From a virus (Duplodnaviria; Heunggongvirae; Uroviricota; Caudoviricetes): 38,720 bases of DNA. Shown here piece after piece: positions 697-27,817 of this stretch; the stretch's first letter is position 1; every line of letters starts with the position of its first letter. The notes under the pieces were generated by a model that saw only the letters and a program-made list of their open reading frames with translations, did no database searches and was not told the DNA's origin. Position numbers and translations under genes: made by a program. Location of the stretch: IMG/VR virus record IMGVR_UViG_2563366844_000005; one strand, written 5' to 3'.

Positions 697-1737
697 TTAT
701 TTAGACGCAAGCGCCGCCTCAATTGCAGATAATCTTTGTCTTAATTCTGCGTTTTCTTCTTCCAGTGCTGTTATCCTGTCGTCTGACTCTCTGGCTACCT
801 GAACAAGCAAACCCGTTACGCCTGAGTAATCGACGGTATAGTATCTTTCTCCCTCTTCTCCATCAGACCCATTGTCCCCGCTCTTGTACTTTATTGTGCT
901 ACCAACTGATTCAGGGATTGCATTAAGTGCCTCTTGCGCAATAACGCCAGCATAAGGCATACCATTAGACTTGAGACGGTAAGTATACCCATTCATTAAT
1001 CTGATGCGCTCAGTGGCATTATCAATAACCTGAATGTTTTCTTTAAGATCTCTGTCCGACACCTGGTCGAATGATGTAGCCTTGCATGGCCCGTTTATCT
1101 CAAGCTGATAGGTTTTATCTGGGTTCCTTTGTGCATAAAACAAAAAAAGCCCGCCATCATCCCTAATTTCATAAACAACTGGACGACTGGAATTTCCCCA
1201 TAATAACGTCGACACACCAGAATACGCCGTACCTTGCGTGTTTAATGTCATGGTTGACCCATGATTGGCATATTTGATCTGTAATGTGTCTGTATTATCA
1301 AACTTAATAAGCGCGTTACTTCCCCGCACACCATACGACATGAGACAGTTCCCCATTTTCAGATAGCCTGAAGTTCCAGGGAAGATCATTGTTCCGCCGT
1401 AAAGGTTGGTAAAATCCCAGCAAATATTTTCACCGTTATCGTTCAGGTTAAGGCGCGCCATTGCGTTACCTGGACTGTCTATCCATTTTTTGAGGTATAG
1501 TTCGCAATACGCATCCTCAACACCTGCCGTCCTGTGAGTTGAGCGGAGTTTTCTCCCAAATATAGCTCCGCTAGTTGGCAATACCTGCTGATACCATGAA
1601 GCAGACCAGTCACCAACGATTTCATCTTTGCTGTCTACATATAATTTTGTTGCGTAGCTTCCTTGATCGTTTTTTAATTTGCTAACGTCGGATTTTAGCG
1701 TTTTGATGTCATCAGGAATTACTGTCGATGTAGCCAT
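697..1737 (-). CDS. Tail fibre/spike protein with C-terminal intramolecular chaperone (peptidase S74-like) domain
   Basis: 346 aa; C-terminus ends in a heptad coiled coil (ITALEEENAELRQRLSAIEAAL) typical of self-cleaving chaperone domains of phage fibres; GAGGAAG precedes the ATG. Confidence 0.75.
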   Translation of the reverse strand: MATSTVIPDDIKTLKSDVSKLKNDQGSYATKLYVDSKDEIVGDWSASWYQQVLPTSGAIFGRKLRSTHRTAGVEDAYCELYLKKWIDSPGNAMARLNLNDNGENICWDFTNLYGGTMIFPGTSGYLKMGNCLMSYGVRGSNALIKFDNTDTLQIKYANHGSTMTLNTQGTAYSGVSTLLWGNSSRPVVYEIRDDGGLFLFYAQRNPDKTYQLEINGPCKATSFDQVSDRDLKENIQVIDNATERIRLMNGYTYRLKSNGMPYAGVIAQEALNAIPESVGSTIKYKSGDNGSDGEEGERYYTVDYSGVTGLLVQVARESDDRITALEEENAELRQRLSAIEAALASK

Positions 1738-1746
1738 TTTTCTTCC

Positions 1747-2028
1747 TCACATCCAGCCACGAAGTTGATGCTCAACAGCAACCACGTATTCATCGAATAA
1801 TGACGATATTTGCGTATCATTAATGATGCGTACGTTTACAAAATATCCGTCTTCCTTAACACATACCGGCTCGCCATCTTCGGTAAGTTCTCCGGTTTCT
1901 TTGTACACGTTACCTATCACATCAATGAGAACATTGTTCTGCATCGACTCGTCATCATAATAGCCAGTGCTCTCCATAAAGGCCGAAAAGTCGGCTCTGT
2001 CGGCAAATTTGAGGGTTAAGTCTCGCAT
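1747..2028 (-). CDS. Hypothetical protein within the tail-fibre module
   Basis: 93-aa acidic ORF; its ATG overlaps the stop of the upstream fibre gene (TAATG), suggesting translational coupling. Confidence 0.55.
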   Translation of the reverse strand: MRDLTLKFADRADFSAFMESTGYYDDESMQNNVLIDVIGNVYKETGELTEDGEPVCVKEDGYFVNVRIINDTQISSLFDEYVVAVEHQLRGWM

Positions 2029-4382
2029 TATATTTTTTCTCCCTGCTGCGCTGCTGTTAATTCCCTGTGCCAGATACGCAAATTTCGGACGTGCCCGAAC
2101 AGATGGCGGCTGCCACTGGACGCCTTTCCACCGATAGTGATGAATCCACCAGTGTACTTCTGATTTTGATATGCTGAAGTTGTCAATGCCCCGAAAACAC
2201 CATTGACAACAACTTGCAACCTTCTGTCTTCCGAAAATAAAAAACCAACGATATTATGGCGCTTAGTTCTTGCAAGAGTACTATTATACTCTTTAATGGC
2301 ATTTGAGTCGCCGTTTGTGATTATCGCTTTATTACCACGAGTAGCAAAACCAAGGTACATATAACTTTGATTTATTATATCTGTGGAATCTCCCGTTGTT
2401 GTTATATCCAGAATCCTTGCTCCACCAGTAATATTAGGCATAAAGCCAGGTTCCCATAGTGTATTTACTTCAACAAGACAACTTATTGCAGGAGTTGACC
2501 AGTTTAATTTTACAGGGACAGTAACCATATCACTGGCTCTTGTTGCACCAGTTCCCGACGTAATGATAAATGATGACGCATGAGTTCCCTTTTCAAACTG
2601 AGGGGTGGTCATCATTATCTGGTCTCCGGCCTGTATGGAACGCCCGTCCGCAGCTATCTCAAAACGAGCGTGAATACTTTTCGGTTCTGGTGATTTATAT
2701 GTAAATTCGATGCGTAACCATCCGTTAGCTTCTCTGTATATGACATGATTGACAGCATCCTCACCATTCGGAATTTTTAATATTTCTCCGGTGCCGCAAT
2801 CTATATATGACTCAGCAACCAGTGTGTTGCTTGTTCCGTCATCGTTCACATAAGCTACGCGAGGTCTGATTAATATATCAGTCCCTTTAACACGGCACGA
2901 AAGTGTAACTGATTCATTTGCATCAACACTGATTACACGGGGATAACCACTCGTAATTAATGTCGCCCGGCCATCCAACGGAGTTCCCGTAACCGTGAAT
3001 GTTCCATATGTAAACCCATACTCGTCAGTTTCACTAGTCACCGATAATGCAGATTTCAGATAATTCCATAAGGATGGTGTATTACTATAATAAAGTGTGT
3101 TTGTTCTCTGCCCCTCTATTAACAACCCCATTTTTTCAAATCTGGGTTCATCTACAGACGCAATACAAAGCCCCCCGGATTTATCAATATATGTCGCTTC
3201 AGATGCCCGCTTAAACTTAACAATCTTGTCGCCAGGCATTGTTATTTCATCATCACCAATAACAATCTTTTTATATGATGGCGAAAAGCCCGTAATCATA
3301 TCCAGTGAATCGTTAAACGGTATCCACACATCAGGCAGCGGTTGTAAGACATATTTATACGGCTCTGCTGCCTGGCTTGCATACTCTCTGGCTGCATCTT
3401 CACTTGCTTTAGCTGCCGTCTGGCTTGCTGCCGATGCTTTCGCTGAGTTCGCAGCCGCTGTTTCGCTCACCTTTGCGTTGGTTTCACTGGTTTTTGCTGC
3501 TTTTTGGCTGTTGGCTGATGCAGTGGCAGAAGCATCCGCCGCACTTGCAGAACCAGCTGCGGCACTCTCGCTTTGGGCCGCTGCATCCTGACTGTTTTTC
3601 GCCGCAGTTTCGCTGGCTTTGGCATTCGTTTCACTCGTCTTCGCTGCTTTCTGGCTGTTAGCCGCAGCAGTTGCTGATCCAGCAGCTGAAGTCGCAGAAC
3701 CGGCAGCGGCACTCTCGCTTTCAGCTGCTGCAACCTGGCTGTTTTTTGCCGCAGTTTCACTGGCTTTGGCATTCGTTTCGCTGGTCTTCGCTGCCGTCTG
3801 GCTGGACTTTGCGTTGGTTTCGCTCGTCTTTGCGGCTGTCTCGCTGTTTTTCGCGTTGGTTTCTGATTTTTTGGCTGCTGTCGCGGAGTTTGCCGATGCA
3901 GTCTGCGAGGTCGCTGCCGCCTGTGCGCTGTTAGCTGCATTCGTTTCTGAGGTTTTCGCCGCGTTCTTCGATGATGCCGCTGCAGTTTCGGATTTCTTTG
4001 CCGCCGCTGCGCTCTGAGAGGCGGCTTCGGCGTTGCGTGCCGCTTCTTCCACCATTGCCTCAAAACGGCGCAATGCCTCCGGCATGACATCATCTTCCGT
4101 CATGGCACCGAGAAAATCATTCAGCGTACCTGGTCTGGAACCTTCATAGACGGTAATGGTCCCGGCATGTGAAGGCGGAAAACCTTCAACCAGCAGGGTG
4201 ACGCTGTACTGGCCATACTCAACATCCATGCTGTAACGTCCGGCTTCATCCGGATTTTCAGAAGCCACCGTGTTCACCAGTACCGTGGTGCTGTTACGCT
4301 TTGCCTTCAGTTGAATAGTGCAGTTCTGTATTGGTTTTCCCGCACCATCTTTCAGCACACCTGAGATTTTTACTGCTGCCAT
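2028..4382 (-). CDS. stf: Side tail fibre protein (lambda Stf-like)
   Basis: N-terminus MAAVKISGVLKDGAGKPIQNCTIQLKA matches the lambda Stf family as recalled; first ATG at 4382 (track start 4388 is GTG) with GGAG upstream; internal Ser/Thr/Ala/Lys-rich tandem repeats. Confidence 0.85.
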   Translation of the reverse strand: MAAVKISGVLKDGAGKPIQNCTIQLKAKRNSTTVLVNTVASENPDEAGRYSMDVEYGQYSVTLLVEGFPPSHAGTITVYEGSRPGTLNDFLGAMTEDDVMPEALRRFEAMVEEAARNAEAASQSAAAAKKSETAAASSKNAAKTSETNAANSAQAAATSQTASANSATAAKKSETNAKNSETAAKTSETNAKSSQTAAKTSETNAKASETAAKNSQVAAAESESAAAGSATSAAGSATAAANSQKAAKTSETNAKASETAAKNSQDAAAQSESAAAGSASAADASATASANSQKAAKTSETNAKVSETAAANSAKASAASQTAAKASEDAAREYASQAAEPYKYVLQPLPDVWIPFNDSLDMITGFSPSYKKIVIGDDEITMPGDKIVKFKRASEATYIDKSGGLCIASVDEPRFEKMGLLIEGQRTNTLYYSNTPSLWNYLKSALSVTSETDEYGFTYGTFTVTGTPLDGRATLITSGYPRVISVDANESVTLSCRVKGTDILIRPRVAYVNDDGTSNTLVAESYIDCGTGEILKIPNGEDAVNHVIYREANGWLRIEFTYKSPEPKSIHARFEIAADGRSIQAGDQIMMTTPQFEKGTHASSFIITSGTGATRASDMVTVPVKLNWSTPAISCLVEVNTLWEPGFMPNITGGARILDITTTGDSTDIINQSYMYLGFATRGNKAIITNGDSNAIKEYNSTLARTKRHNIVGFLFSEDRRLQVVVNGVFGALTTSAYQNQKYTGGFITIGGKASSGSRHLFGHVRNLRIWHRELTAAQQGEKI
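3390..3995 (-). repeat. In-frame tandem repeats inside the side tail fibre gene
   Basis: Protein shows reiterated KTSETNAKASETAAKNSQ-type units; the same periodicity creates many overlapping alternative-frame ORFs on both strands in the track. Confidence 0.8.
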
Positions 4383-4392
4383 ATCCACTCCA

Positions 4393-4420
4393 CAAAAAAG
4401 CCCGCCTGAACCGGCGGGCT
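4393..4420 (-). terminator. Intrinsic terminator between lom and stf
   Basis: Minus-strand hairpin AGCCCGCC / GGCGGGCT followed by six U. Confidence 0.6.
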
Positions 4421-4446
4421 GTCATAACACTGTGTTACCTGGCTAA

Positions 4447-5046
4447 TCAGAATTTATAACCGACACCCACGATGAAACCGTCAGTGCGCCAGTCACCACT
4501 GCCGGAGCCTTCATAAGCAATATCAATGGCCACGGATTCGGTCGGGTTAAACTGCACGCCAGCTCCCCACGCCAGAGACGTGTTGCTGTGGCGATCATCA
4601 TCACTTCCGGTCAGCACATCGTTCGTTTTCCCCTTGCTGTCAGTTACGCGGAGATAATCACCGGAAAAAGTCGAAACACGGCTGTAAGCCACACCTGCCA
4701 TCGCATAAGCACTGAACCATTCATTCACGCGTACAGATGGCCCCGCCATCATGCTGAACCAGCGGTTACGCACTGAATCTTCATGCCAGCGGGTATCGCT
4801 GTAATGCGTTTTTTGCTCATCTTTGGCATTGGCATAACTGAATGACGTCACCAGCCCCAGCGTGTCCGTAAATTCATAACGGTATTTCACGTTAATGCCC
4901 TTCAGGTCATCACTGCCTGGCATATCAGTATGGGCCTGAAGATACCCGGCGCTTAGTGTGGACTGATGCTCTGCTGCGCTCGCTGGCGTACCAGCGGCAA
5001 CCAGCCAGACTACTGCGGACAGAATAACAGCACATAATTTACGCAT
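4447..5046 (-). CDS. lom: Lom/Ail/PagC-family outer-membrane beta-barrel protein
   Basis: 199 aa; signal peptide ending ASA; C-terminal aromatic residue (GVGYKF); sits immediately after J as in lambda; own RBS; terminators on both sides. Confidence 0.9.
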   Translation of the reverse strand: MRKLCAVILSAVVWLVAAGTPASAAEHQSTLSAGYLQAHTDMPGSDDLKGINVKYRYEFTDTLGLVTSFSYANAKDEQKTHYSDTRWHEDSVRNRWFSMMAGPSVRVNEWFSAYAMAGVAYSRVSTFSGDYLRVTDSKGKTNDVLTGSDDDRHSNTSLAWGAGVQFNPTESVAIDIAYEGSGSGDWRTDGFIVGVGYKF

Positions 5047-5067
5047 AATTACCTCTCGCTTTTCTGC

Positions 5068-5094
5068 AATAAAAAAGGCGTCATTTCTGACGCC
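5068..5094 (-). terminator. Intrinsic terminator between J and lom
   Basis: Minus-strand hairpin GGCGTCA-GAAA-TGACGCC followed by UUUUUUAUU. Confidence 0.6.
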
Positions 5095-5113
5095 CGTATT
5101 GGGGTTATAAAAT

Positions 5114-8100
5114 TCAGCTGATACTGATGCCTGCGGTGGCTTTCTTCATCACCACAACCAGCAAATCGCTGATACTTGCTGTGGGATACCAGCCATTTAC
5201 CAGCCATGCCGATACAGAAAATTCCAGTGTCATTACACCACTGCCTGCAGGCATATCAATAACACCCGTATATATCAGCGTATTATCCAGAGCCGTTCGG
5301 TTATAAATTTCAGCACCGTTTTTTCGTACTATCAGACGGCATGAGGAGTAGATATCAGTATGATCTTGCTCATGTTTAGCGCCACTGAATGCCACCGCCG
5401 GAATAACAATTTGCCGGTCAAACGGCTGATCGTCATAAACCCTGACGGTAATGGTCCCTGATGGCCACCGCTCCGGTGCACGGGAGTCCCGGGGGAAAGC
5501 TTTGCCCACCGTTTTAACAATATCGCCTTCAATCTGGTTGGCTGACAGTTTTCCCAGAATCCGGCAGTTCTGATTAATCGTGACATTGTTGAGCGTCCCG
5601 GAGTTCGCATTCACGTTACCGCTGATATCGGCATTTTTCGCCGTCAGCCGCCCGTCCGGTGTCAGGGAAAATGCCGGAGGATTACCGCCGCTGGTAATGG
5701 TGGGAGCCGTCAGGTATTTCAGGAACACTTCGTTCATAAATATCTGATCGCCCTGACCAACAAACATCGGCTTTGTGTTGCCATTCGCAGGATTAATCAT
5801 CGCAATCCTGTCTGCCGCCAGCAGCACCTGACTCTGCATGCCGTCAGGGGTGTTTTCAATACCGGCACCAATACCCGCGATATAAAGGCGTCCGTCCTGC
5901 ATCTGCTGCAGCTTCACAGCCCACATGCTGTTCAGGTTATTATTTGTATCAACCTGAACCTTCTGTATCTGCTGAATTGCCGCACTCTGGTCTTCCAGTT
6001 TCTTATTGACGGTCTGCGTGATTTCATTACTGACATCCGTGATGGACGTTCTGATTTCCGCCAGGTCAGGCGCAAGCTGACCGTTATCAATCTGCGTCCA
6101 CAACTCCTGAGCCAGATGGGTTTTCCCTATCTCTCCTTTGAAAAAATCCAGATAGCCGGATGCATCATCACTCGGCTGGCCAACAGCCTCCACGAATGCA
6201 GATTTGCCAACGGTGTTCACACTGCGGATGTAAAAATAATAATCATGGCCCGGCTTGATATTGATACTGGCAGCTATCCAGTACAGCGCCGTGCCAAGAT
6301 AGCGGGCTGTGGTTTCAACCTGCCTGATATCCGCAATCCGCTTTTCTGAGAACCAGAACTCAAACTGTACCGTCGGATCATAAACGGCGAGATGCGGCGT
6401 GGCGGTTATCTGAAAATAGCCCGGCGTCAGCTCAATCCGCGATGGCGCTGCCGGTGCGGCAATCCGGAACGATACCGATGCCGGATCGCCCTGCTGCCCC
6501 CAGGCATTTGCCGCCCGGACTGTCAGCCTGTAATTTCCCAGCGCCAGTTGCCTGAAGCGGTATGTGGTTTCCGTCGTCCGGGCCGTGCTGACCAGCCGCT
6601 CACTGCCGTCATCCGCTGCCACGGTCAGGCGAAGCAGGAAGCTCACGCCCTTCACCACCTTCGGCGTGTCCCAGCGCGCCAGCACCTGATATTCCCCGCT
6701 GTCTGCGGTGACTTCGGCGGTCAGGTGCTGCACCGCTGGCGGCGTGACACCGTTCACCGTTCCGCTCTGGTCGCCGTCAAAGTGCGCCCCGTTATCCACG
6801 ATGGCTTCTTTCTCCGGCACATGCTGCACGGCAGTGATGGCATACGTGCCGTCATCGTTCTCACGGATACTCACACAGCGGAACAGGCGCTGGCGCAGCG
6901 TCGGCAGCTTCAGCCCCCATACGCTGTATTCGGCAACACCGTCAGGAACACGGCTCACTTTTACCTTCACGCCGTCGGTGACGGACTGAACCTCCACGCT
7001 GACCGGATTGCCACTTCCGTCAACCAGGCTTATCAGCGTGGTACCGGAGGATGGCAGCGTGATTTCACGGTCGAGCGTCAGCGTCCGGGTCTGGCTGTTC
7101 ACCGCCAGCACGCGACCACCGATGCTGATACCGGCATAGTCATCATCACAGATTTCAATGACATCGCCCGGTACATGGCGAAGCCCTTCGGCACCCACGC
7201 TGAAGTCCACGGTCTGCGTTTCCAGCAGTTCCGTTTTAATCAGCCACAGCCCGGCGCGGTGCGCCTGCCCCCGGCTGGTACAGCCAAAGGCATCCATCTT
7301 CGTGACGTTACGACCGTAACGGAGAATGGCCTGCGTATCTTCAACAAGCTCTGTCGCCGTCTCCCAGCCGTTATCCGGGTCAATCCAGTTCACCTCAACG
7401 GCATTATGGCGGTCCTTCAGGGCGCTGAAGCTGTAGCGGAACGGCGCGCCATCATCCGGCATAACCACATTACTGTGGTTATAGGTCCACACCTTATCCG
7501 ACGGTCGGTCCTGCACGAACGTCAGCGTCTGCCCGTTCCATACCGGCATACAGCGCATCGCCGAACAGAAATCACTGAGCACATCCCACGCCTTACGCTG
7601 TGTGGTCAGGTAAGCGTTACAGGTGATGCGCGGCTCCGTGCCACCAAAGCCATCCGGCACTGACTGATCGCAATACTGGCCGATGACATACAGCGCCCAT
7701 TTGTCCACATCCGCCGCACCAAGACGTTTCCCCATGCCGTAGCGCGGGTGGGTCAGCATATCCCACAGACACCAGGCCATGTTGTTGCTGTATGCCGGTT
7801 TAAACGTCCCGTCCCAGATACCGCTGTATTGCCGCGTCTGCGGGTTATAGTTCGATGGCACCTGCAGAATGCGCCCGCGAAGATGATAATTACGGCTCAC
7901 CTGCTGGCTGCCGAACTGTTCCGAGTCCACCTGCACGCCGACCAGTGCCGTGTTCGGGTAGCACTGTTTCACATCGATGATTTCAGTGTATGACGACCAG
8001 AGCGTTTTGTTCTGCAGCTGGTCTGTGGTGCTGTCCGGCGTCATCCTGCGCATCCGGATATTAAACGGGCGCGGCGGCAGGTTACCCACCACCACCGAGG

Positions 8101-8593
8101 CCAGATACTGCGAGGTGGTTTTGCCCTTAATGGTGATGTCTTTTTCCGTCACCCAGCCACCGTTACGTTGTATCTGAACCAGCAGGCGGACTTCCGACGG
8201 ATTCCTGTCACCCTTTGAGGTGGTTTCCACCAGTGCCTGCACACCGAAGGTAAAGCGCAGACGGTCGATGTTTGCAGACGTGATGGTCCGGGTGATCGGC
8301 GTGTCGTATTTCACTTCCGTACCCAGCACCGTCTCGGAACCGGAGGATTCAAATCCCTCCGGCGGTGTCTGCTCCTGCTCACCTGCCCGGAACACCACCG
8401 TGACACCGGAGATGTTGGTATTCCCCTCACTGTCCAGCACCGGTGTACTGTTCAGCAGCACGCTTTTTAATCCATCCACCGGACCTTCTATCGGCCCTTC
8501 GCTGATGGCATCGATCACACTCAGTAACTGCGTGGATTTCAGGTTGTCCTTCGCTTCGCGCGGGGTATGCCCCTTACTGCTGCCTTTACCCAT
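5114..8593 (-). CDS. J: Tail tip / host-specificity protein J
   Basis: 1159 aa; N-terminal roughly 800 aa nearly identical to lambda J as I recall it; C-terminal roughly 320 aa differ. GGAG RBS. Confidence 0.95.
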
Positions 8594-8653
8594 TCGTCAT
8601 GCTCCATAAACGACAAAACCGCCCGCAGGCGGTTTCACATAAAACATTTTGCA

Positions 8654-9301
8654 TCAGCGACCAATCACCACAACCTGACCACCATCCCCTTCGTCTGCCG
8701 TGCTGATCTCCTGAGAAACCACGCGTGACCCCACGCGCATTTCACCGTACAGAACAGGCAGAACATTGCCCTGGGCAACCATGTTATCCAGTGACGAGAA
8801 ATACGTGTTCTGCTTACCGTTATCCGTTCTGTGTGTACTGGGCGTCCGGGCTTTCGGTGCCAGCATCTGCGCCACTCCGCCCAGGATCATACTGGCCCCT
8901 GCTGCATACATACCCGATACAGCCGCGGCCCCCAGCCAGCCCACAGGGTTCCACCATGCCACCGCAATCAGCGCCGCACCCAGCACTGCCTGAAAAACAC
9001 CGCCACTTTTAGCTCCCGCCAGACGCGGCACAATGTGGATCACGGCACCATTTGCCAGCGGCTCATTAAGACGGGCAGATAATTCATTTTCGCCTGCATC
9101 ACGCCCGGCAATGCGTACCTGGTACCAGCCGTCGCTCAGTTTCTGACGAAACGCCGGGATCTGCATGGCCAGCGCCCGGATGGCTTCGGCCCCCGTTTTC
9201 ACACGAAGGTCGATGCGGCGGCCAAATCGTTGTAAATCCCCGTAAAGGCAGATGCGTGCCATGCCCGGTGACGCCAGAGGGAGTGTGTGCGTCGCTGCCA
9301 T
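8654..9301 (-). CDS. I: Tail assembly protein I
   Basis: MAATHTLPLASPGMARICLYGDLQRF... matches lambda I as recalled; ATG at 9301; overlaps the end of K by 103 nt. Confidence 0.9.
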   Translation of the reverse strand: MAATHTLPLASPGMARICLYGDLQRFGRRIDLRVKTGAEAIRALAMQIPAFRQKLSDGWYQVRIAGRDAGENELSARLNEPLANGAVIHIVPRLAGAKSGGVFQAVLGAALIAVAWWNPVGWLGAAAVSGMYAAGASMILGGVAQMLAPKARTPSTHRTDNGKQNTYFSSLDNMVAQGNVLPVLYGEMRVGSRVVSQEISTADEGDGGQVVVIGR

Positions 9302-17379: not shown

Positions 17380-18585
17380 TTACGCCGCTGCAATCTTCAG
17401 CAGTTTGATGGCCTGCGAATCGACCAGCATGCCGCCGGTGCGCTTGGTGGTATAAAAACCGACAAACGGTTTATTGGTGTACGGATCACGCAGAATGCGG
17501 GTGCCGATACGGTCAACGATGGTGTAACCCCGTTTGAAGTTACCAAATGCAATGGCTTTCGCATCAGCGGCGATATCCGGCATCTGTTCGTTTTCAGCGA
17601 TACCGTAACCCGCCAGAGAGGACGGCTGCCCCAGCTCCAGCCCCGGACGCCACAGATAGTTACCCTCGCTGTCTTTCAGCAGACGGATGGCAAACAGGCT
17701 GTTGTTGTTCATCATGAACTTCGCGCCAGTGCGGTGTGCCTTACGCAGCGTGTAAATCAGTTTGATAATGGCGTCTGCGGTCACCGTCGTCGCTTCGCCG
17801 GATACAATATGCTGAAGTTTGCCGAACGCCCGGACCTTATCGGTTTCATCGGTGGATTCATACGCCAGGAACCCTTTCGGCTTCTTGGTACCATCGCCGG
17901 AGGTAAAGGCAATTTCTTCCTGTTCGGCAAATTCGGTTGCCAGCTCGCTGTTGATCCAGGCCTCCACGTTGAAGAAAGCATCATCCAGCATTTTCTGGGT
18001 GGCCTGCGGGTTACCGTAGATTTCCCCCATGAAAGGTTCAATCAGGCCCAGTTTTGAGGTGGCAGTCTGGGTGCGCGCGTCAGTCTCGCCAACCCATCCG
18101 GAAGCCGTGCCGCCCAGATTCACCAGTTTTTTGTAGTCGGAACCGCCAACGGTGATCACCGTGGCTTCCTGGCGCATCACCACTTCATCTTTCAGCAGGT
18201 TGAGAATGTTGCGATCCAGTTCTTCCGGCACGGCATAGCCGCCGTCTTCATCGGTGCCCACCTGCAATGCCTTACGCTCCAGATCACGCAGACCGTCTTC
18301 ACGGCCTTTACGCAGGAAGCCCACAAAAGCCTCTTTATGCTCAGTGGCCAGTTTATTTTGCACACCACCTGCCGGACGTTTCAGCTCAAGCAGCTCTTTT
18401 TCAAGATCGCTTTTGAGATTTTCCAGCTCGCTGAGTTTCCCGTTCAGGGTTTCCACCTGCCCGGCAAGCTTGCCTTTTTCCTGCTCAATCGCATCCACGC
18501 GCTTGTCGTTCTTTGCCTTGAAGTCGTCAAACTTCTGCTGCAGCTCCTGCGCGACCTGTTCGACATCTTTAATATCTACCGCCAT
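17380..18585 (-). CDS. Major capsid protein, HK97 fold
   Basis: 401 aa; N-terminal coiled-coil delta domain followed by a capsid body, typical of HK97-type proteins cleaved by the prohead protease; AGGAG RBS. Confidence 0.9.
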   Translation of the reverse strand: MAVDIKDVEQVAQELQQKFDDFKAKNDKRVDAIEQEKGKLAGQVETLNGKLSELENLKSDLEKELLELKRPAGGVQNKLATEHKEAFVGFLRKGREDGLRDLERKALQVGTDEDGGYAVPEELDRNILNLLKDEVVMRQEATVITVGGSDYKKLVNLGGTASGWVGETDARTQTATSKLGLIEPFMGEIYGNPQATQKMLDDAFFNVEAWINSELATEFAEQEEIAFTSGDGTKKPKGFLAYESTDETDKVRAFGKLQHIVSGEATTVTADAIIKLIYTLRKAHRTGAKFMMNNNSLFAIRLLKDSEGNYLWRPGLELGQPSSLAGYGIAENEQMPDIAADAKAIAFGNFKRGYTIVDRIGTRILRDPYTNKPFVGFYTTKRTGGMLVDSQAIKLLKIAAA

Positions 18586-18599
18586 CGTATTTCTCCTGA

Positions 18600-19250
18600 T
18601 TAGAAGTTCAGATTTTTCAGTGCATTCAGTGCAGAGCCCACATCCTCAGCGTCGCGCAGGGACAGTGCGCCATAGCCCCCGGCCATGAATGCTTTGGCCT
18701 GGGTACGGGAGAGTCCGACATCACGCAGGACTCTTTCGATTTTTTTCTGTTCGGGGATTTCCCCGCGGGCCAGCGCGTTCTTGACGTCGCTGATCCGCGC
18801 CTCGTCGTTAGACGGAAACGTCACCAGACTGACTTCCCAGAGGTCGATTTCTTTCAACAGAAAGGCTTCTTTCGTCCGGTCGTATTCCCAGTCCTTCAGG
18901 ACGTACCCAATAGAAAGGCCGGTTAACGAACCGGCCTTCATGTGTGCATGTGCGCGTTTTGCCAGGGGATCATCATCAATGAGCAACCGCCCCCTGACGT
19001 AAAGCCCGACATCGTCTTCCTTCATTTCGGTGTAAACACCGATGGGCTCATCCATGCGGTGCTGCCAGAGCAGCGCAGGCAACGCTTTTCTGTCACTCCA
19101 CGCCCGCAGGGAAGCAGCAAATGCCCCGGACATCACCACATCATCGTGACTGTCCTTTACACCAAAGACGGAGCCATACCCTTCAAACTCACCGGAGTCA
19201 CTGACAGATTTCAGACTCAGCGGTACATCAAGACGTTGTTTCGTCTGCAT
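18600..19250 (-). CDS. Prohead maturation protease (HK97 family)
   Basis: Position between portal and capsid genes; start taken at the ATG at 19250, which has an AAGGA SD. Confidence 0.85.
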   Translation of the reverse strand: MQTKQRLDVPLSLKSVSDSGEFEGYGSVFGVKDSHDDVVMSGAFAASLRAWSDRKALPALLWQHRMDEPIGVYTEMKEDDVGLYVRGRLLIDDDPLAKRAHAHMKAGSLTGLSIGYVLKDWEYDRTKEAFLLKEIDLWEVSLVTFPSNDEARISDVKNALARGEIPEQKKIERVLRDVGLSRTQAKAFMAGGYGALSLRDAEDVGSALNALKNLNF

Positions 19251-20469
19251 TGGCGTTATCCTTCTGCTTACCGGCTTTACTGCCATCGGAGGGTTTCGTG
19301 GTCATGTTCATCGGTGTGAGATAGACATCCCCACCGGAACGCGGATTCATATCTTCCAGGTCGCGGCAGTCATTGGGAGAGTAAATTCCCCAGTTGATCC
19401 CGGTGGCGTAGGCTTCAAAACGGGACTTCATATCCCCGCGCAGTAACGCCCCGGCGTTAAATTTGGCGTAATAAACGCCCTGCTTACTTTTTCGTACCAG
19501 TCCGGTGTTGATCCGCTGTTCGATTCGGGTCAGATACGGCACCAGTGAATAGTTGATAAATCCGAGCCCCAGCTCTTCGATATTGTTGAAGGTGGCGCGA
19601 TCGGTGTTCTGCACCATGTGCAATGGCACACGGAACAGACGACAAATTTCTTCAAGCTGAAACTTGCGGGTTTCCAGGAACTGGCTGTCCTCTGCGTTCA
19701 ACGCCATCGACTTCCAGTCCAGCCCCATCTCAAGGATCATCGGGCGGTGAGCATTGCCAAGCCCGGTGTGACGCTCCTCAAAATCTTTCTTCAGGCGCTC
19801 ATAAGCCTGATCCGACAGCGTCTGCTCTGTACGCAACACACCCGACGTCACCGCGCCATTGCTGAACAGTCTGGCCCCATGCTCTTCGGTCGCTGCCGCC
19901 AGCGATATTGCCTCGCGGGCATAGGCGATGGGATTCAGTCCCACCAGACCGTCCAGCGTCAGCGTGCGCACATGCCAGATATCTTCCTGGTTCAGTACAT
20001 CCGTGGAGCCGTCCGGGAATGTGACCTGGTAAACCGGTTCCCAGCTACTGTTAAGCTTCGGTACCACACAACCGGGGTCGACGGGCAGCAGTTCAGCCAC
20101 TTCGCCAAATGCTTTCACTTTGTAGGCGTAAAAATTTCCCCTCAGGCACAGACAGGTGACCACCAGCTCCCAGAACTCCTGCGGCGTCATATAGCCATTG
20201 GGATGCGTGGAGATCAGTTTATGCAGACGTTCGCCGGTGGCTCTCTGCTTCAGGCTGCCGTTCAGGTGATACAGATTGCAGGGCAACATCCCGACCGACT
20301 CTGCCAGCACCCTGACGCAGGAAAAAACCGCCGTCAGTCGCATGGCTCGCTGACTGCTGATCTGCTTTCCGGTATAGGTGTCGTAGGACAACCCGATGGC
20401 ATCCGCCAGCTCTGCTGGCGTGGTCACCGGCGCGTCACTTTTTCGTTGAAATAATCCCGAAAAGAACAC
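19228..20469 (-). CDS. Portal protein (HK97 family)
   Basis: 413 aa between terminase and protease. The track start is a GTG overlapping the preceding stop; the true start may be downstream. Confidence 0.85.
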   Translation of the reverse strand: MFFSGLFQRKSDAPVTTPAELADAIGLSYDTYTGKQISSQRAMRLTAVFSCVRVLAESVGMLPCNLYHLNGSLKQRATGERLHKLISTHPNGYMTPQEFWELVVTCLCLRGNFYAYKVKAFGEVAELLPVDPGCVVPKLNSSWEPVYQVTFPDGSTDVLNQEDIWHVRTLTLDGLVGLNPIAYAREAISLAAATEEHGARLFSNGAVTSGVLRTEQTLSDQAYERLKKDFEERHTGLGNAHRPMILEMGLDWKSMALNAEDSQFLETRKFQLEEICRLFRVPLHMVQNTDRATFNNIEELGLGFINYSLVPYLTRIEQRINTGLVRKSKQGVYYAKFNAGALLRGDMKSRFEAYATGINWGIYSPNDCRDLEDMNPRSGGDVYLTPMNMTTKPSDGSKAGKQKDNANADETTS

Positions 20470-20651
20470 TATTTACCTCCGCCGACAGACAGCTGTGTAC
20501 GATCGAGATATCGCGCCACCAGCCACGACCAGAACAGGCACAGCACCCCGGCAACAACAAAACCCGCCGGGGGATAAATCAGCCAGGCACCATACGCCAG
20601 CAAAAGCGCACCCAGCACGCCCACCAGTGGCGCGAGAATTATCAGAAACAT
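20469..20651 (-). CDS. Small hydrophobic protein between large terminase and portal
   Basis: 60 aa with two predicted transmembrane segments; ATG with GAGGT SD. Confidence 0.4.
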
Positions 20652-20662
20652 AATGACCTCGG

Positions 20663-22420
20663 TTAAAGCGAGCGGATGCCCACGCTGACCAGATGTTCAG
20701 ACAGATCCGGCTCCGGTTCACCACCATTGACCAGCATCCGGCTCATTGCTGTAAACATCGCAACAGGGCCGTCGATTTTGGCTTCCAGCGTGGATTTATT
20801 CGGGAAGATATTGTCGTTTTTGTCCGGTTTTACCGTAACGTTAGACATCATCCAGTTCATGACCGGATGATTGCTGTGATGGAAACGCCCGGCATAGACC
20901 AGTGATTCCGTTTCCTTCATGGCCTCTGACAGATTGCGAACCGTCTGCGGAACCTCCACCAGCGGTATCCCTTCTTCAGCCAGTGCCAGGCTGAACTGCA
21001 TCGCGCTCCACGGGTCAAATCCCAGTTCCCTGAGGTTTTCACCACCAATCCATTCCAGTAAGTCACTTTTTATCTGAGCATGATCGATAACATCACCATC
21101 CGTCAGAATCAGCTTATCCATCTCCGCCCACTTCCGGTAAAGTTCTGCCTGCTGCCGCGAGCATCGTTCCAGCCGTCCTTCCGGAAGCCAGAATTTAAAA
21201 TCGGCATGAACATGCCCGTTATCCGTTCGCCAGAGTTTTGCCGCCGCACAGATATCAATCTTATGAGCAAGGTCAACGCCGACCCACATGGGATACGTTT
21301 TCAGCTCATGTCGTGGGGCAATGTATTCGCACTTCTCCCACTTAATCATGTCCATCCAGGCAGACTCTGCTGTTACCCACACATTCATGTGTTTGGTAAA
21401 AAAATTCACCCGCGCAGAGACCTGTTCTTTCGCTTTTTTCGCCAGGCGACGCAGATCATCCCAGCGTTTACAGATGCCCAGGCCGGGATTCGCTTTCTGC
21501 CAGACCGTTTCATCAAACGGATCATCTCCCTCATCGAGGGTGTAAATAATCGCAAAGTAGGAGTCGTCTTTTACCGCGCCCTCCACGTCGCTGTTATAGC
21601 CACGCAATACCTTGATGGCGTAATCACGCTGCTCGTAACAAATCCCTTCCTTGTTAAACCCTGCCGTGGTGATACCAAATAAAAGGGACTGCAGACGGGC
21701 ACCGGTTGCCGTTTCCAGAACGTCCCACACGTCACGGGTTTTATGTGCATGCAGCTCATCAATAATGGCGCAGTGGATGTTCAGACCATCCAGGTTGTTT
21801 GCATCCGAAGAAAGCGGTTCAAATTTTGATGCGCTCTGCTCCTGGTAAATCGCCAGCTTGTTGAAATCAAACAACCGCCCGAGTGTCGACCGGGCTTTTC
21901 TGACCATATTTTTGGCGTCTTCAAACACGATTCTGGCCTGGTCACGCGTGGTTGCGGCTGAATACACCTCAGCTCCGCCTTCACCATCTGCCCCCGTCAT
22001 ATACAGGCCGATACCCGATGACAGAGTTGATTTTGCGTTTTTACGGGCGACTTCGTTGTACGCCGTCCGGAACCGGCGCACCATCACCGGACGTCCGCTG
22101 CCATCGCTGCGCATGACAACTTCCCCGGTCTCTTCATTGACCAGCGGAATGACAAAACCAAAAATATTAATGAGGATAAATACATGCCAGTCCATCAACT
22201 CAATGGGCTGGCCTGCCAGCGCCCCTTTTACATGAGGCACAAATTTGTAGAAATTCAGGATGTGCTGCGCACGGGGTTCACTGAAATAAATCCCCCGCTC
22301 TTCGCCGTACTTCAGATCATCAAGAAAACGCTGGCAGGCTAGGCGGACAAATTCGCCAGCAACAATTTCTCCTGCAACAACACGTTCGGCGTAGCGGATC
22401 CCGTCAGCCACTTTTGCCAT
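20663..22420 (-). CDS. Terminase large subunit
   Basis: 585 aa; ATPase plus nuclease architecture expected of a terminase; its ATG overlaps the small-subunit stop (ATGA). Confidence 0.9.
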
Positions 22421-22902
22421 CAGTCTCTCGCTTTTAAAAGCTCCGCCAGCGGATCAACATCATCCGGTCCGGCGATATTTACTTTAGCCCGGCTTGCCGG
22501 TGACATACCAAACTCTGCAAGCATTGCCCGGATCCGCTTCCAGGCATCCGCTTTCATTGCCGCCGCGGGGTGCGCCTTAATCAGTACATCACCGCTCTGC
22601 GTTTCCGTGCGGTAGGTATACCCCTCAACATCGAGTGTTTCGCAGTGATGCCGATATTCGGTGTAGGCTTCCACCAGCAACTCGAGCGCACGCGCATCAA
22701 GCTGAGAAATGATCCCTTCCGCATTCAGCTCTTCCGCCATTCGCCTGAACCAGTACTTCCCCTGAGCCCCTAAATGCTGCGGAATTTTAGGAAGACCTTT
22801 TTCATCCTTTTTAGCGGTTTTTTTGTGGTCTTTAACGGGACGCTTTGAGGGGTTGCCTCGTATCAAATGCAGGCGTGGCGGGGTTTTCGGAGGTCCTGAC
22901 AT
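22420..22902 (-). CDS. Terminase small subunit (P27-like)
   Basis: 160 aa basic N-terminus; lies between the HNH gene and the large terminase, the usual HK97-type arrangement. Confidence 0.8.
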   Translation of the reverse strand: MSGPPKTPPRLHLIRGNPSKRPVKDHKKTAKKDEKGLPKIPQHLGAQGKYWFRRMAEELNAEGIISQLDARALELLVEAYTEYRHHCETLDVEGYTYRTETQSGDVLIKAHPAAAMKADAWKRIRAMLAEFGMSPASRAKVNIAGPDDVDPLAELLKARD

Positions 22903-23050
22903 AATCGGTCTTACCTATCAATCGTTTGTTCACATTTCCAAAAAAAAGTTTTCGAACCTGCGGCGATGTGAGGAAGGGTCAGGCGGCGGTACTGAGCAGC
23001 CAGGGTTGCAGAGATTTGACCCGCCCCTCCCCTACAGATGGGAACCGTTA

Positions 23051-23401
23051 TCAATTGATGCGTTCGCGCGCTGTTTTTGCTTTATGACAGGGCCAGCACA
23101 GACTCTGCAGGTTACTGTCTGCATCCGTGCCACCATGAGCTTTCGGAATGATGTGGTCCACAGTTCTGGCTTCAACGGCTCTCCCATTGCGCAGGCAGTT
23201 CTGACACAGATGATTATCACGCTTCAGTATGCGCGCACGTATGGCATCCCATTTCGAGCCATAGCCACGCTGGTGGCGGCTCAGTCCGCGTTGATGCTGT
23301 ACCCATCCTTCGCCACGATGTTTATCGCAGTAACCAGAACTGTCTGTGGTTGTACCTGCACATCCACGCTTACGGCAGGCGCGTGAGATTCGTGATGGCA
23401 T
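23051..23401 (-). CDS. HNH endonuclease (terminase-associated)
   Basis: 116 aa; Cys pairs plus His-Asn-His motif (CQNC ... VDHIIPKAHGGTDADSNLQSLCWPCH). Confidence 0.85.
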   Translation of the reverse strand: MPSRISRACRKRGCAGTTTDSSGYCDKHRGEGWVQHQRGLSRHQRGYGSKWDAIRARILKRDNHLCQNCLRNGRAVEARTVDHIIPKAHGGTDADSNLQSLCWPCHKAKTARERIN

Positions 23402-25848: not shown

Positions 25849-25951
25849 CGAAGTTACCTCTCTTCACCAAGAATTCGGTAATAAAATAACTTGTGGCGCT
25901 CTCGTTTTTATGCCGATAAAATAAACGGTCCACTTTCAAATGGAGCGATTC

Positions 25952-26872
25952 ATGATTTTTCTCAGAACTGAAAACGGCATCGAGAAACTTGAAAACTGGG
26001 AGGAAATTATATCCAGACCAAACTTTGTCACCGCTATAGACAAAGGAGTTCAACAACTTGAGGAGATAATTGGTTACTACAAATTTAAAGAAGAAATCCA
26101 CTGTGGTCTAACTGGTTGCAACCAACCACATCAAATGGGTTATATTGTAAAAACATCTAGTGGCATTGAAACCAACATCGGAAATAAATGTGGTAAAAAC
26201 GAATTTGGTGTGGAATTTGGTGAAAACGTTCTTAGTTTCAATAAACTTATGCAACTCGAAACCAATCGGGAAATTATTAGTACCGCAAAAAGTAAATGTG
26301 AAGCGTGGCAAAAAAATATTGAAACGATACGAAATATCAAACCCACAATAGATTATCTATCTTCTACCATCGAAAATAGTAAAAATTCCAATTACGCCGG
26401 AAGACTTGGTGCTACAGAAATTCGTTTTTTGACCAAGAGCCAGACAGGCCTTGTAACCCTTTCTGAAGTGGAAACTGATAAGAATACCAAAACAATTCTG
26501 TTCGCAATGAATGAACACATGCGCGAGTCTGGAGAAGCAATAAGTGAATTCTACATAGGAAAAGTATCATTTAGTCATGTTCTTTTACCAGAAAACAATC
26601 TTCGTGATTTTTTTGTTGCGCTCAAAGAAGATCTAAAAAAAATTCAGTGTATTGATCTACAAACAGCCCCAAGCCCAGAAATTTCTAATGTTGCCAAAAT
26701 TGCCAGTTCAATCGAAGAACGAATCAAACGATTAAAAAAACTGAAACATGAAGCCAGTAAATTCCTAACTAAAAAAAATCTGCGTCCCATCGCAAACAAA
26801 ATAAAATACTCATCGACAGCGGATGAACTTGAATTCCATAATTTCGAACGCTTTTTAAACGGGCTGAAATGA
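25952..26872 (+). CDS. Hypothetical 307-aa protein, AT-rich moron antisense to the late operon
   Basis: Uninterrupted ORF in a visibly AT-rich block; second ATG at 25952 has a GGAG SD at 6 nt; Lys/Glu/Asn/Ile-rich; no family recognised; stable hairpin immediately 3'. Confidence 0.65.
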   Translation: MIFLRTENGIEKLENWEEIISRPNFVTAIDKGVQQLEEIIGYYKFKEEIHCGLTGCNQPHQMGYIVKTSSGIETNIGNKCGKNEFGVEFGENVLSFNKLMQLETNREIISTAKSKCEAWQKNIETIRNIKPTIDYLSSTIENSKNSNYAGRLGATEIRFLTKSQTGLVTLSEVETDKNTKTILFAMNEHMRESGEAISEFYIGKVSFSHVLLPENNLRDFFVALKEDLKKIQCIDLQTAPSPEISNVAKIASSIEERIKRLKKLKHEASKFLTKKNLRPIANKIKYSSTADELEFHNFERFLNGLK

Positions 26873-26896
26873 TAGAAGCCCCGAAAGGGGCTTCTA
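26873..26896. terminator. Stable 10-bp stem with GAAA tetraloop after the moron gene (possible bidirectional terminator or RNA end element)
   Basis: TAGAAGCCCC-GAAA-GGGGCTTCTA; no strong U-tract on either side. Confidence 0.45.
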
Positions 26897-26986
26897 TCAA
26901 AATCATTTACGCATTATTCCGCATGCTCAAAAGAATACATGACAGATTCGGACAAAATCAAGTGCAATGTCGCAAAAAGTCTAAGT

Positions 26987-27817
26987 TTAGTTCACATCAT
27001 CACCAAAACTTGTCACATTCTGAAAAGCAATATCGGCCTTATGCTCTTCCTGGTGACAAATGTCAACCAGAGAATCAAGAAACGGCTTCCAATTACGTGT
27101 CCATGTCCTGACATGTAGCTCGGGTATCCGCTTCAGTACAACTTTATATACTGTGGTAGACGGTATCGTGGAAAATCCATTTCCGCTACAACGTTCGCAG
27201 ATTTTAAACACTGGCACACCACGCTCGCTTGTGGCTTTGCGGTCCAGTACCTCTCCCTTTCCACCACAACGACACCTGGCACTTATCACTCCCTTCCCTT
27301 TACATACATCGCAAACGACTGGTACAACTTCTGTTACCTCTGTCCATTTCTCCCAGTCTGACGGTCGAACAGCACGGGAGCGACTGGCCCAATATGGTGC
27401 TTTACCCCATGGGTATGAAACCTTACGAATGACCTGCTTACGGGGTGTTAGTCCGGTACCACTGCAACTATGGCATGTTACGCTGGTGGACGCCGATCGG
27501 GAATACTCAGCAAAAGCAAACTGCGCCAGCACCAGCATACACCAGCCAAATTCACCACCAGCTGCTTTACGCACATTCTTCGGTGCAATTTCCATCGCGT
27601 GACGCGCCAGCGCCTGGACTGCCATCTGCTCATCAGTCTTGCTGATACCTGCCTTCCCGAAGAAGGCCACCAGACCAAACCGCTCACGATTGCTGGTGGT
27701 ACCAATAGCCGCCATAACATCGGTGCCTGTAAGACGTTCCGGAGAGGTTCCTTTCACATCATCGCCGATATACATTCCCTGAGGACTGAAGTATTTTAGG
27801 GATGCCTCAAGCTTCAT
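26987..27817 (-). CDS. Putative late-gene regulator at the Q position, with DnaJ-type zinc-finger repeats
   Basis: 276 aa; four Cys repeats (CHSCSGTG, CDVCKGKG, CRCGGKG, CERCSGNG); last gene before the late leader and lysis genes. Q-family membership not verified. Confidence 0.4.
   Translation of the reverse strand: MKLEASLKYFSPQGMYIGDDVKGTSPERLTGTDVMAAIGTTSNRERFGLVAFFGKAGISKTDEQMAVQALARHAMEIAPKNVRKAAGGEFGWCMLVLAQFAFAEYSRSASTSVTCHSCSGTGLTPRKQVIRKVSYPWGKAPYWASRSRAVRPSDWEKWTEVTEVVPVVCDVCKGKGVISARCRCGGKGEVLDRKATSERGVPVFKICERCSGNGFSTIPSTTVYKVVLKRIPELHVRTWTRNWKPFLDSLVDICHQEEHKADIAFQNVTSFGDDVN

Follow-up and report, generated by a model that had tools for sequence, protein, structure and literature searches.

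Mosaic structure of J, the tail-tip protein of a lambdoid prophage, and a receptor-binding domain most likely directed at non-K-12 OmpC

Lambda J binds LamB, phage 434 uses OmpC, and a few point mutations can retarget lambda J from LamB to OmpF. Among proteins whose receptor has been tested, the one nearest to the J protein analyzed here is 1A2, a chimera in which a foreign gpJ C-terminus, taken from an E. coli strain of a private collection, is joined to lambda J at aa 964 (Brödel et al., Nature 2024; PMC11338833). The lambda-1A2 chimera was assayed on MG1655 ΔlamB ΔompC with plasmid-borne OmpC variants; it delivered into ~98% of MG1655 carrying EDL933 OmpC, into ≤2% with K-12 OmpC, and into ≤5% of wild-type MG1655, a strain with both LamB and K-12 OmpC (PMC11338833). 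For these values we used the 8a source data and the text; the Extended Data Fig. 2 panel C sheet duplicates the panel B numbers and conflicts with the text. 1A2 thus discriminates among OmpC variants, whereas another gpJ, A8, uses OmpC and accepts the K-12 form (PMC11338833). In the Gifsy-1 J of Salmonella, the N-terminal region is lambda-like (79% identity) and the C-terminal receptor region is only 18% identical (PMC12312913). Compared by description only, the present J likewise joins a lambda-like N-terminus to a divergent C-terminal receptor region, although Gifsy-1 J, from another host genus, has diverged much further.

Architecture and mosaic structure of J

The J gene studied here lies on a stretch of viral DNA of 38,720 nucleotides (IMG/VR record IMGVR_UViG_2563366844_000005; the window), apparently a complete lambdoid prophage. 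The gene and its parts are as follows.

5114..8593, minus strand: J (tip attachment or central tail fibre protein), a complete, intact ORF of 1159 aa
6179..8593, minus strand: lambda-like body, aa 1-805 (hub domains and two FNIII/Ig domains), from protein and DNA identity
5894..6178, minus strand: alpha-helical-shaft region, aa 806-900, divergent from lambda and 434, from segment identities and the breakpoint
5996..6088, minus strand: aa 836-866, with ~28 residues that lambda lacks, from BLASTP gaps of 5+16+7
5567..5893, minus strand: beta-prism fibre region, aa 901-1009, from segment identities, ending in a conserved linker (aa ~950-1005)
5114..5566, minus strand: receptor-binding domain (RBD), aa 1010-1159 plus stop codon, of the 1A2 / VT1-Sakai / PhiR46_1 allele group

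BLASTP aligned J with lambda J (NP_040600, 1132 aa; PDB 8iyk, 8xcj, 8xck) at 83% identity overall. All six gpJ-specific Pfam domains scored above cut-off and in the canonical order of hub, two FNIII/Ig domains, tip fibre and C-terminal Ig-like RBD: FNIII-A_GpJ (86-207), Phage-tail_3 (330-496), Ig_J (610-714), Ig_J_second (716-818), Phage_Tail_Tip (872-1000) and Ig_GpJ_C (1029-1159). The best PDB matches were 9wca, 'A8 gpJ 713' (E = 1e-122), and lambda J 8xcj/8iyk (E = 1e-100 to 1e-102); a literature search found no paper describing 9wca. J therefore resembles lambda gpJ in family, domain order, I-J-lom-stf neighbourhood and the fold family of its Ig-like C-terminus. As originally predicted, the N-terminal ~800 residues are nearly identical to those of lambda: aa 1-805 align without gaps at 98.0% identity (789/805), the figure being 98.9% for 434 and 98.1% for phage 21. 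At the DNA level, J nt 1-2400 show 95-99% identity to all three phages, and 150-nt sliding windows over the body give 91-99%. Given this body identity and the structures described in PMC11101478, J would be a trimer at the tail tip that carries a 4Fe-4S cluster and opens upon receptor binding.

Similarity to lambda ends abruptly. DNA identity drops from 91-99% to 27-65% at J nt ~2409-2417, where mismatch density also jumps, placing the first breakpoint relative to lambda and 434 at aa 804-806 (window ~6177-6185) and the start of divergence at aa 806 (~6178). The C-terminal divergence from lambda that had been predicted is thus real, but it spans 354 residues rather than ~320, because the peptide quoted as its start begins at aa 801. 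Its boundary had been put at 6073, which corresponds to aa 841 and misses ~35 divergent residues. The tail had also been treated as one region in contact with LamB in lambda; this applies to the last ~150 residues only, the RBD, with the last ~150-170 determining the receptor, whereas aa 806-1009 correspond to the shaft and prism fibre, named here after the domain description in PMC11101478. Divergence within the tail is uneven, since the linker at aa ~950-1005 is nearly conserved in the lambdoid J proteins compared (78-99% DNA identity), and windows at J nt 2776-3000 are 77-99% identical to all five comparators.

The shaft region, aa 806-900, is only 33% identical to lambda with 28 gap positions, but 97.9% identical to phage 21 and 96.8% to VT1-Sakai. 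The insert of ~28 residues that lengthens it relative to lambda sits between Ig_J_second and Phage_Tail_Tip and is common to phage 21, VT1-Sakai and PhiR46_1. It is predicted to be helical in a low-confidence AlphaFold2 single-sequence model of aa 806-1159 (mean pLDDT 44), which we used for rough secondary structure only. The beta-prism region, aa 901-1009, is 75% identical to lambda and 434, 97% to phage 21 and 98% to VT1-Sakai.

A second breakpoint lies at J nt ~3030-3100, and sharp divergence from phage 21 (OL657228) begins at nt 3099-3102, aa 1034; up to aa 1033, phage 21 shares the body, long shaft and prism (97-98%). The DNA identity blocks demonstrate a module swap directly, in agreement with what had been proposed: high identity to lambda, 434 and 21 gives way to 95-98% identity to phage 21 only (J nt 2400-2925) and then to identity with VT1-Sakai (86-97%) and PhiR46_1 (100%) only (J nt 3030-3480). 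Third-codon-position G+C falls from 70% in the body to 48% in the RBD along with this shift. J therefore contains two nested swaps rather than one, and the conserved linker, in which Brödel et al. placed their chimera junction, is a likely site of recombination among J alleles. Over the whole gene, J shares 98.7% DNA identity with that of PhiR46_1 (PV340565), and from J nt 1132 on, the last 2349 nt are the same except for one base. The two elements differ in type, PhiR46_1 being a linear plasmid-prophage (telR, ParA/ParB) rather than an integrase-type prophage.

The receptor-binding domain and its allele group

The RBD belongs to the Ig_GpJ_C family (127.5 bits; cut-off 26.2). It is neither of the LamB type (lambda h+), with 42.7% identity to lambda J aa ~982-1132 and unlike variable segments, nor of the 434 type (40.6%, 16 gap positions); identity is 63% to phage 21 and 59% to A8 (PDB 9wca), whose own RBDs are 81% identical to each other. 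By contrast, it is 94.0% identical to VT1-Sakai, 94.7% to 1A2 (142/150) and 100% to PhiR46_1, and the VT1-Sakai and 1A2 RBDs share 99% identity. The predicted lack of C-terminal conservation was thus borne out by alignment with lambda J, and the differences and indels cluster in four segments that vary in both sequence and length. Judged by the alignment and the low-confidence model, these segments may be receptor-facing loops. The comparisons with phi80, HK97 and N15 that had also been suggested were uninformative for this allele, as the bodies of these proteins are only 30-35% identical to that of the present J and no RBD match was detected at E < 1. Nor is J of the FhuA type represented by N15 and phi80, there being no C-terminal match and lom, not gp22/gp23/cor, lying downstream.

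The 1A2 protein was rebuilt by stitching reading frames from the codon-recoded, machine-read DNA text in the supplement of PMC11338833. At the DNA level J and 1A2 are only 69% identical, owing to the codon recoding of the foreign part and to reading errors in the text, so that proteins were compared instead; for the same reason, one or two residues of the comparison are uncertain. Like the present J, 1A2 has the conserved linker ahead of its RBD, but it retains the shaft and prism of lambda. The two RBDs differ at eight of 150 positions: I1012V, I1025L, Q1076K, D1077E, S1118H, V1120H, G1134N and S1157T. Five of these (1076, 1077, 1118, 1120 and 1134) coincide with the most variable sites of the allele group, whose hot spots are 1076-1082, 1118/1120 and 1134. 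The combination found here, 'QD / S-V / G' at 1076-1077, 1118, 1120 and 1134, also occurs, without any change, in PhiR46_1 and three complete E. coli genomes. PhiR46_1 is deposited as a phage genome with E. coli ECOR13 as listed host; a literature search on the PhiR series and ECOR13 found no paper describing these phages or their receptors.

The allele group itself is widespread: 3365 (~62%) of the 5426 complete E. coli genomes have it, with multiple copies per genome (median 2). EHEC prophages related in this way include VT1-Sakai, PPompW and those of long-tailed Stx phages; RBD identity to the present one is 94% for VT1-Sakai and for many Stx phages, although the J body of VT1-Sakai is only 60-85% identical and its J is frameshifted. 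Because the group is so frequent, the finding made here is known biology: J shows ordinary host-range module swapping with a common, already catalogued RBD, and has little import beyond the correct annotation of J.

Probable receptor and alternative explanations

The RBD sequence strongly implies a receptor other than LamB. This agrees with the different receptor originally proposed, since the domain is only 42.7% identical to that of lambda but ~95% identical to that of 1A2, which works via EDL933 OmpC. By homology to this tested domain, which delivers poorly on wild-type K-12, OmpC is most likely the receptor of J, with an uncertain allele preference. We consider the following reading probable as a whole: J is a lambdoid-prophage tip protein recombined from three blocks, and its RBD is most likely directed at non-K-12 OmpC. 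The first block is the lambda-type hub and FNIII body (aa 1-805), the second the phage-21-type shaft and beta-prism (aa 806 to ~1009-1033), ~28 residues longer than in lambda, and the third the C-terminal Ig-like RBD (aa ~1010-1159), whose allele group also includes the RBDs of 1A2, PhiR46_1 and EHEC prophages (VT1-Sakai). The four variable bottom loops of a trimeric RBD would enter the extracellular mouth of a trimeric porin, most likely a non-K-12 (EDL933-like) OmpC rather than LamB. Binding would then rearrange the shaft and prism and open the tail tip, as suggested by the lambda structures.

The five substitutions relative to 1A2 at the most variable sites may tune specificity and, given the discrimination of 1A2 among OmpC variants, the allele spectrum of J, in principle even its receptor, could differ. 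It is conceivable, though unlikely, that the 'QD / S-V / G' sub-allele recognizes OmpC variants outside the range of 1A2 and A8 or a different porin altogether; if so, these positions would form a naturally occurring switch of specificity in step with porin polymorphism. That sub-allele-specific substitutions have retargeted the RBD to neither OmpC nor LamB but, for example, to OmpF or another porin appears quite improbable. The RBD does differ from 1A2 by eight substitutions, several of them at sites where the group varies most, and lambda J itself can be turned to OmpF by a few point mutations, but the substitutions are mostly conservative (I/V, I/L, D/E, Q/K, S/T) and 434, with 41% identity, uses OmpC as well. 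Moreover, both tested relatives on the RBD branch, 1A2 (95% identity) and A8 (59%), use OmpC. The use of OmpF versus OmpC by gpJ is discussed in PMC11101478.

There is very little likelihood that J is an inactive remnant of a decaying prophage, which would make the receptor question moot. VT1-Sakai J, a closely related allele, is split by mutation, and E. coli genomes carry multiple copies of the group, but the present frame of 1159 codons is unbroken, and around it the tail, head, lysis, replication, repressor and integrase genes all occur as full-length ORFs. In addition, the C-terminal two-thirds of J match, except for one base, the J of PhiR46_1, which is deposited as a complete phage genome and names a host. 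Least probable of all is that the RBD still uses LamB and has diverged by drift or arms-race variation inside a LamB-binding domain: its fold and family are those of lambda (Pfam Ig_GpJ_C and PDB matches) and LamB and OmpC are both trimeric porins, but its differences from lambda are concentrated in the four variable segments and 1A2 reached so few LamB-bearing MG1655 cells.

With OmpC as the probable receptor, work with this prophage should expect OmpC-dependent, not LamB-dependent, adsorption. OmpC of a non-K-12 type is probably used, and plating on K-12 may therefore fail. More generally, the frequency of the RBD group and the use of OmpC by its tested relatives make the LamB use of lambda a minority case. 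When lambda-based delivery particles are engineered, the within-group hot spots are candidate positions for altering specificity.

Genes and sites flanking J

PHROG assignments of the ORFs gave the gene order tape measure, M, L, K, I, J, lom, stf, which matches the PhiR46_1 annotation. The features downstream of J are as follows.

5076..5095, minus strand: terminator-like hairpin and T-run, 19 nt past the J stop codon
4447..5046, minus strand: lom (Ail/Lom outer-membrane protein), following J as it does in lambda (Pfam Ail_Lom, 419 bits; phrog_108)
2028..4388, minus strand: Stf side tail fibre, 786 aa (Pfam phage_tail_N; phrog_1419)

Stf is the second host-range determinant of the cassette. 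A block 98.6% identical to PhiR46_1 covers window positions 3598-8899 and takes in only the N-terminal ~260 aa of Stf. Two ORFs overlapping J, at 5332-5610 on the minus strand and at 6392-7663 on the plus strand (423 aa), were judged to be mechanical ORFs of a G+C-rich coding region. The records of phages 21 and 434 carry a terminator annotation that matches the position of the terminator-like hairpin after J, and a second terminator-like site is found at 4420-4399.

Structure and mosaicism of the J gene

The J gene, which encodes the tip attachment (central tail fibre) protein, is one uninterrupted long ORF at 5114..8593 (-) specifying 1159 residues. Pfam analysis identified in it the full gpJ-specific domain set in canonical order.

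Pfam domains of J (residues)
86-207: FNIII-A_GpJ
330-496: Phage-tail_3
610-714: Ig_J
716-818: Ig_J_second
872-1000: Phage_Tail_Tip
1029-1159: Ig_GpJ_C, the annotated C-terminal receptor-binding domain (127.5 bits, cut-off 26.2)

BLASTP revealed 83% overall identity to lambda J (1132 aa), distributed heterogeneously. Residues 1-805 are 98.0% identical without gaps, confirming the lambda-like N-terminal stretch of about 800 residues in the original prediction. Identity is 33% with 28 gap positions over residues 806-900, 75% over 901-1009, and only 42.7% over 1010-1159, the receptor-binding domain (RBD), which speaks against a C-terminus conserved with lambda J; residues ~950-1005 are conserved across every J compared. 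In 150-nt windows, DNA identity to lambda is 91-99% until J nt ~2400 and 27-65% beyond that, and mismatch density jumps at nt 2409-2417 (residues 804-806; window ~6177-6185). The divergent C-terminus, at the 3′ end of the ORF, was thus correctly recognized, but it comprises 354 rather than ~320 residues (the peptide originally quoted starts at residue 801), and the proposed start at 6073 falls at residue 841, ~35 residues past the true breakpoint (~6178). Equating the entire divergent tail with the region that contacts LamB in lambda holds for the last ~150 residues only, the rest being shaft and prism: in published lambda structures, the second FNIII domain is followed by an alpha-helical shaft, a beta-sheet prism and then the RBD (PMC11101478).

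We compared J with its counterparts in lambda, 434, phage 21, VT1-Sakai (AP000400) and Escherichia phage PhiR46_1 (PV340565).

Identity of J blocks to the five comparators
Block 1, nt 1-~2400 (aa 1-805), DNA: lambda/434, 91-100%; phage 21, 93-98%; VT1-Sakai, 59-97%; PhiR46_1, 93-100%
Block 2, aa 806-1009, protein: lambda/434, 33% (806-900) and 75% (901-1009); phage 21 and VT1-Sakai, 97-98%; PhiR46_1, 100%
Block 3, aa 1010-1159, protein: lambda, 42.7%; 434, 40.6%; phage 21, 63%; VT1-Sakai, 94%; PhiR46_1, 100%

The predicted module swap is borne out by this comparison and refined: judged from the alignments, J carries two nested exchanges, one covering shaft and prism, the other the RBD on its own. 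The likeness to phage 21 stops sharply at nt 3099-3102 (residue 1034). Window and PhiR46_1 J differ at 43 positions in nt 180-1131 and at one only beyond, within a 98.6%-identical block (window 3598-8899) that begins at the end of I, takes in J and lom, and stops ~260 codons into stf, the side tail fibre gene. At third codon positions, G+C drops from 70% (J body) to 48% (RBD; 62% in the RBD of lambda), which fits a separate module history. Block 3 is directly preceded by a conserved linker, a plausible natural crossover site given that Brödel et al. placed their chimera junction there (PMC11338833).

Block 2 is ~28 residues longer than in lambda. The extra residues lie after Ig_J_second and before Phage_Tail_Tip, in a part homologous to lambda's alpha-helical shaft, and residues 812-885 were predicted to be helical by single-sequence AlphaFold2 (low confidence, mean pLDDT 44). 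As 28 residues equal four heptads, a trimeric helical shaft would gain roughly 4 nm with its register unchanged. The long form is common to phage 21, VT1-Sakai, PhiR46_1 and many wild lambda-like phages, and is therefore not peculiar to the window.

Receptor of the J protein

Brödel et al. (Nature 2024) took C-terminal parts from naturally occurring variants of gpJ and attached them to the lambda protein at residue 964, using as recipients MG1655 ΔlamB ΔompC with plasmid-expressed OmpC variants (PMC11338833). Two of these chimeras, A8 and 1A2, use OmpC; A8 works with OmpC of both MG1655 and EDL933, 1A2 efficiently with that of EDL933 only (PMC11338833). In the source data, 1A2 delivery is ~98% into MG1655 with EDL933 OmpC, ≤5% into wild-type MG1655 and ≤2% with K-12 OmpC (PMC11338833). 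A later preprint by the same group reports that both chimeras recognize EDL933 OmpC, not LamB. In supplementary file 10 (Extended Data Fig. 2) of PMC11338833, the panel C (OmpC-EDL933) values for 1A2 and A8 equal those of panel B (OmpC-MG1655) and clash with the text and Fig. 1b data, probably a spreadsheet copy error. The last ~170 gpJ residues alone were enough for the receptor switch (PMC11338833); the receptor-determining part of J is ~150-170 residues.

The printed GpJ 1A2 DNA in the supplement of PMC11338833 is unbroken up to the next heading, with lambda sequence through …ADISG followed by a codon-recoded foreign part. Because the machine-read text contained indels, we rebuilt the protein by joining tblastn frames. 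The rebuilt RBD is 99% identical to that of VT1-Sakai and matches the window RBD at 142 of 150 residues (94.7%), the differences (window to 1A2) being I1012V, I1025L, Q1076K, D1077E, S1118H, V1120H, G1134N and S1157T. The A8 RBD is 81% identical to that of phage 21 and 59% to the window's. Together with the delivery data, this identity means that the nearest experimentally characterized RBD relative, 1A2, is an OmpC user that does not use LamB. The predicted change of receptor relative to lambda is accordingly supported, and the relationship to 1A2 points to OmpC as the likely receptor of window J; a porin other than OmpC is conceivable, though less probable.

As 1A2 does not treat all OmpC variants alike, it is uncertain which OmpC alleles window J would accept. 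Variation within the allele group of the window RBD is focused at residues 1076-1082, 1118/1120 and 1134, and five of the eight differences from 1A2 fall at these most variable sites. Between allele groups, four RBD segments (roughly 1034-1046, 1070-1085, 1099-1111 and 1128-1141) vary in sequence and length, alternating in the alignment with the conserved turns DDxxFDRQ, NG and MPAGxG. The lambda RBD has four receptor-facing loops, L1-L4 (PMC11101478), and the alignment and the strand pattern of a weak model suggest that the variable segments may correspond to them. If this mapping holds, Q1076/D1077 and G1134 would sit on the receptor face.

Distribution of the RBD

That lambdoid phages carry mosaic J genes whose C-terminal host-range modules can be exchanged is well established, and Gifsy-1 is a recently documented parallel. 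The case of window J is itself already known: its exact C-terminal sequence is in GenBank (PhiR46_1, as 'tail tip host specificity protein J'), and close variants occur in thousands of genomes. A tblastn search of 50,697 phage records with the 150-residue RBD sorted J C-termini into discrete allele groups.

RBD allele groups by identity to the window RBD
88-100%: PhiR46_1, PhiR49_2, VT1-Sakai, PPompW prophages, many long-tailed Stx1a and Stx2a phages, JLK-2012
~63%: phage 21, Lambda_ev phages, 1H12
~59-60%: BP-4795, other Stx phages
42.7%: lambda, HK630
~40%: 434, cdtI, ev099

No RBD homologue was detectable in HK97, N15 or phi80, the phages originally proposed for alignment, whose J bodies are merely 30-35% identical. 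Of the solved structures, 9wca, 'A8 gpJ 713', matched best (E = 1e-122), with lambda J behind it. Among 5426 complete E. coli genomes, 3514 carry the 453 RBD-coding nt at ≥80% nucleotide identity, and in 3365 the match spans ≥80% of the query (median, two copies per genome); strains AMSCJX02, CM2 and EC332 carry exact copies (100% identity). Species representatives with the RBD are E. coli, E. albertii, E. ruysiae and Shigella flexneri. According to its annotation, a mutation has divided the VT1-Sakai J (AP000400, 1089-4561) into two ORFs, so that prophage's own tail tip is probably defective.

Genomic setting and other window features

Upstream of J on the same strand are I, K, L, M and the gene for a 1072-aa tape-measure protein; downstream are lom, the 786-aa side tail fibre gene and two more ORFs. 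The remaining genes comprise an HK97-type head module with an HNH endonuclease, lysis genes, Q, primase, helicase, a CI-like repressor and integrase, so that J is part of an apparently complete lambdoid prophage. No credible further ORF of ≥60 aa was found inside 5114-6073. An antisense open frame of 423 aa within the G+C-rich J body is most likely a codon-composition by-product and no gene. Annotated terminators of phages 21 and 434 match the terminator-like sites of the window.

Features around J and in the fibre region
6392-7663 (+): 423-aa antisense open frame
5095-5076 (-): terminator-like hairpin and T-run, 19 nt past the J stop
4420-4399: second terminator-like site, after lom
2028-4388 (-): side tail fibre gene, stf
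1747-2028 (-): 93-aa ORF, phrog_1361, function unknown
697-1737 (-): 346-aa ORF, tail-fibre PHROG matches; Pfam Peptidase_S74 (intramolecular chaperone of endosialidase) at aa 227-278

Mosaicism extends to stf: the 98.6% PhiR46_1 block covers no more than its first ~260 codons, the next part is 83-84% identical, and 2108-3099 gave no megablast match to PhiR46_1. No lambda-type tfa was found downstream of stf in the window. The domain content of the 346-aa ORF suggests that it may encode another fibre or spike protein, one with its own chaperone. The order of genes past stf is shared by PhiR46_1, but at only 86% DNA identity. That phage also has genes for ParA and ParB and a telR annotation (PV340565, 16318-18941), as in an N15-type linear plasmid prophage, whereas the window element has an integrase at 37407-38720; the same J-lom-stf cassette thus occurs on two kinds of temperate-phage backbone.

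The head/packaging module at 17380-23401 (-) is unlike lambda's and encodes the HNH endonuclease, small and large terminase, portal, prohead protease and major head protein (phrog_10). In DNA it is best matched by phages that include phi467 and Evi rather than by lambda, which restricts the lambda-like share of the virion module to the tail tip. A 310-aa ORF on the opposite strand (25940-26872, +) separates the Q antiterminator gene from the lysis genes; it has no Pfam or PADLOC match and only phrog_7003, function unknown. Cargo genes occupy this position in many lambdoid prophages, and the ORF lies in the lowest-G+C kilobase of the window (26001-27000, 35.8%).
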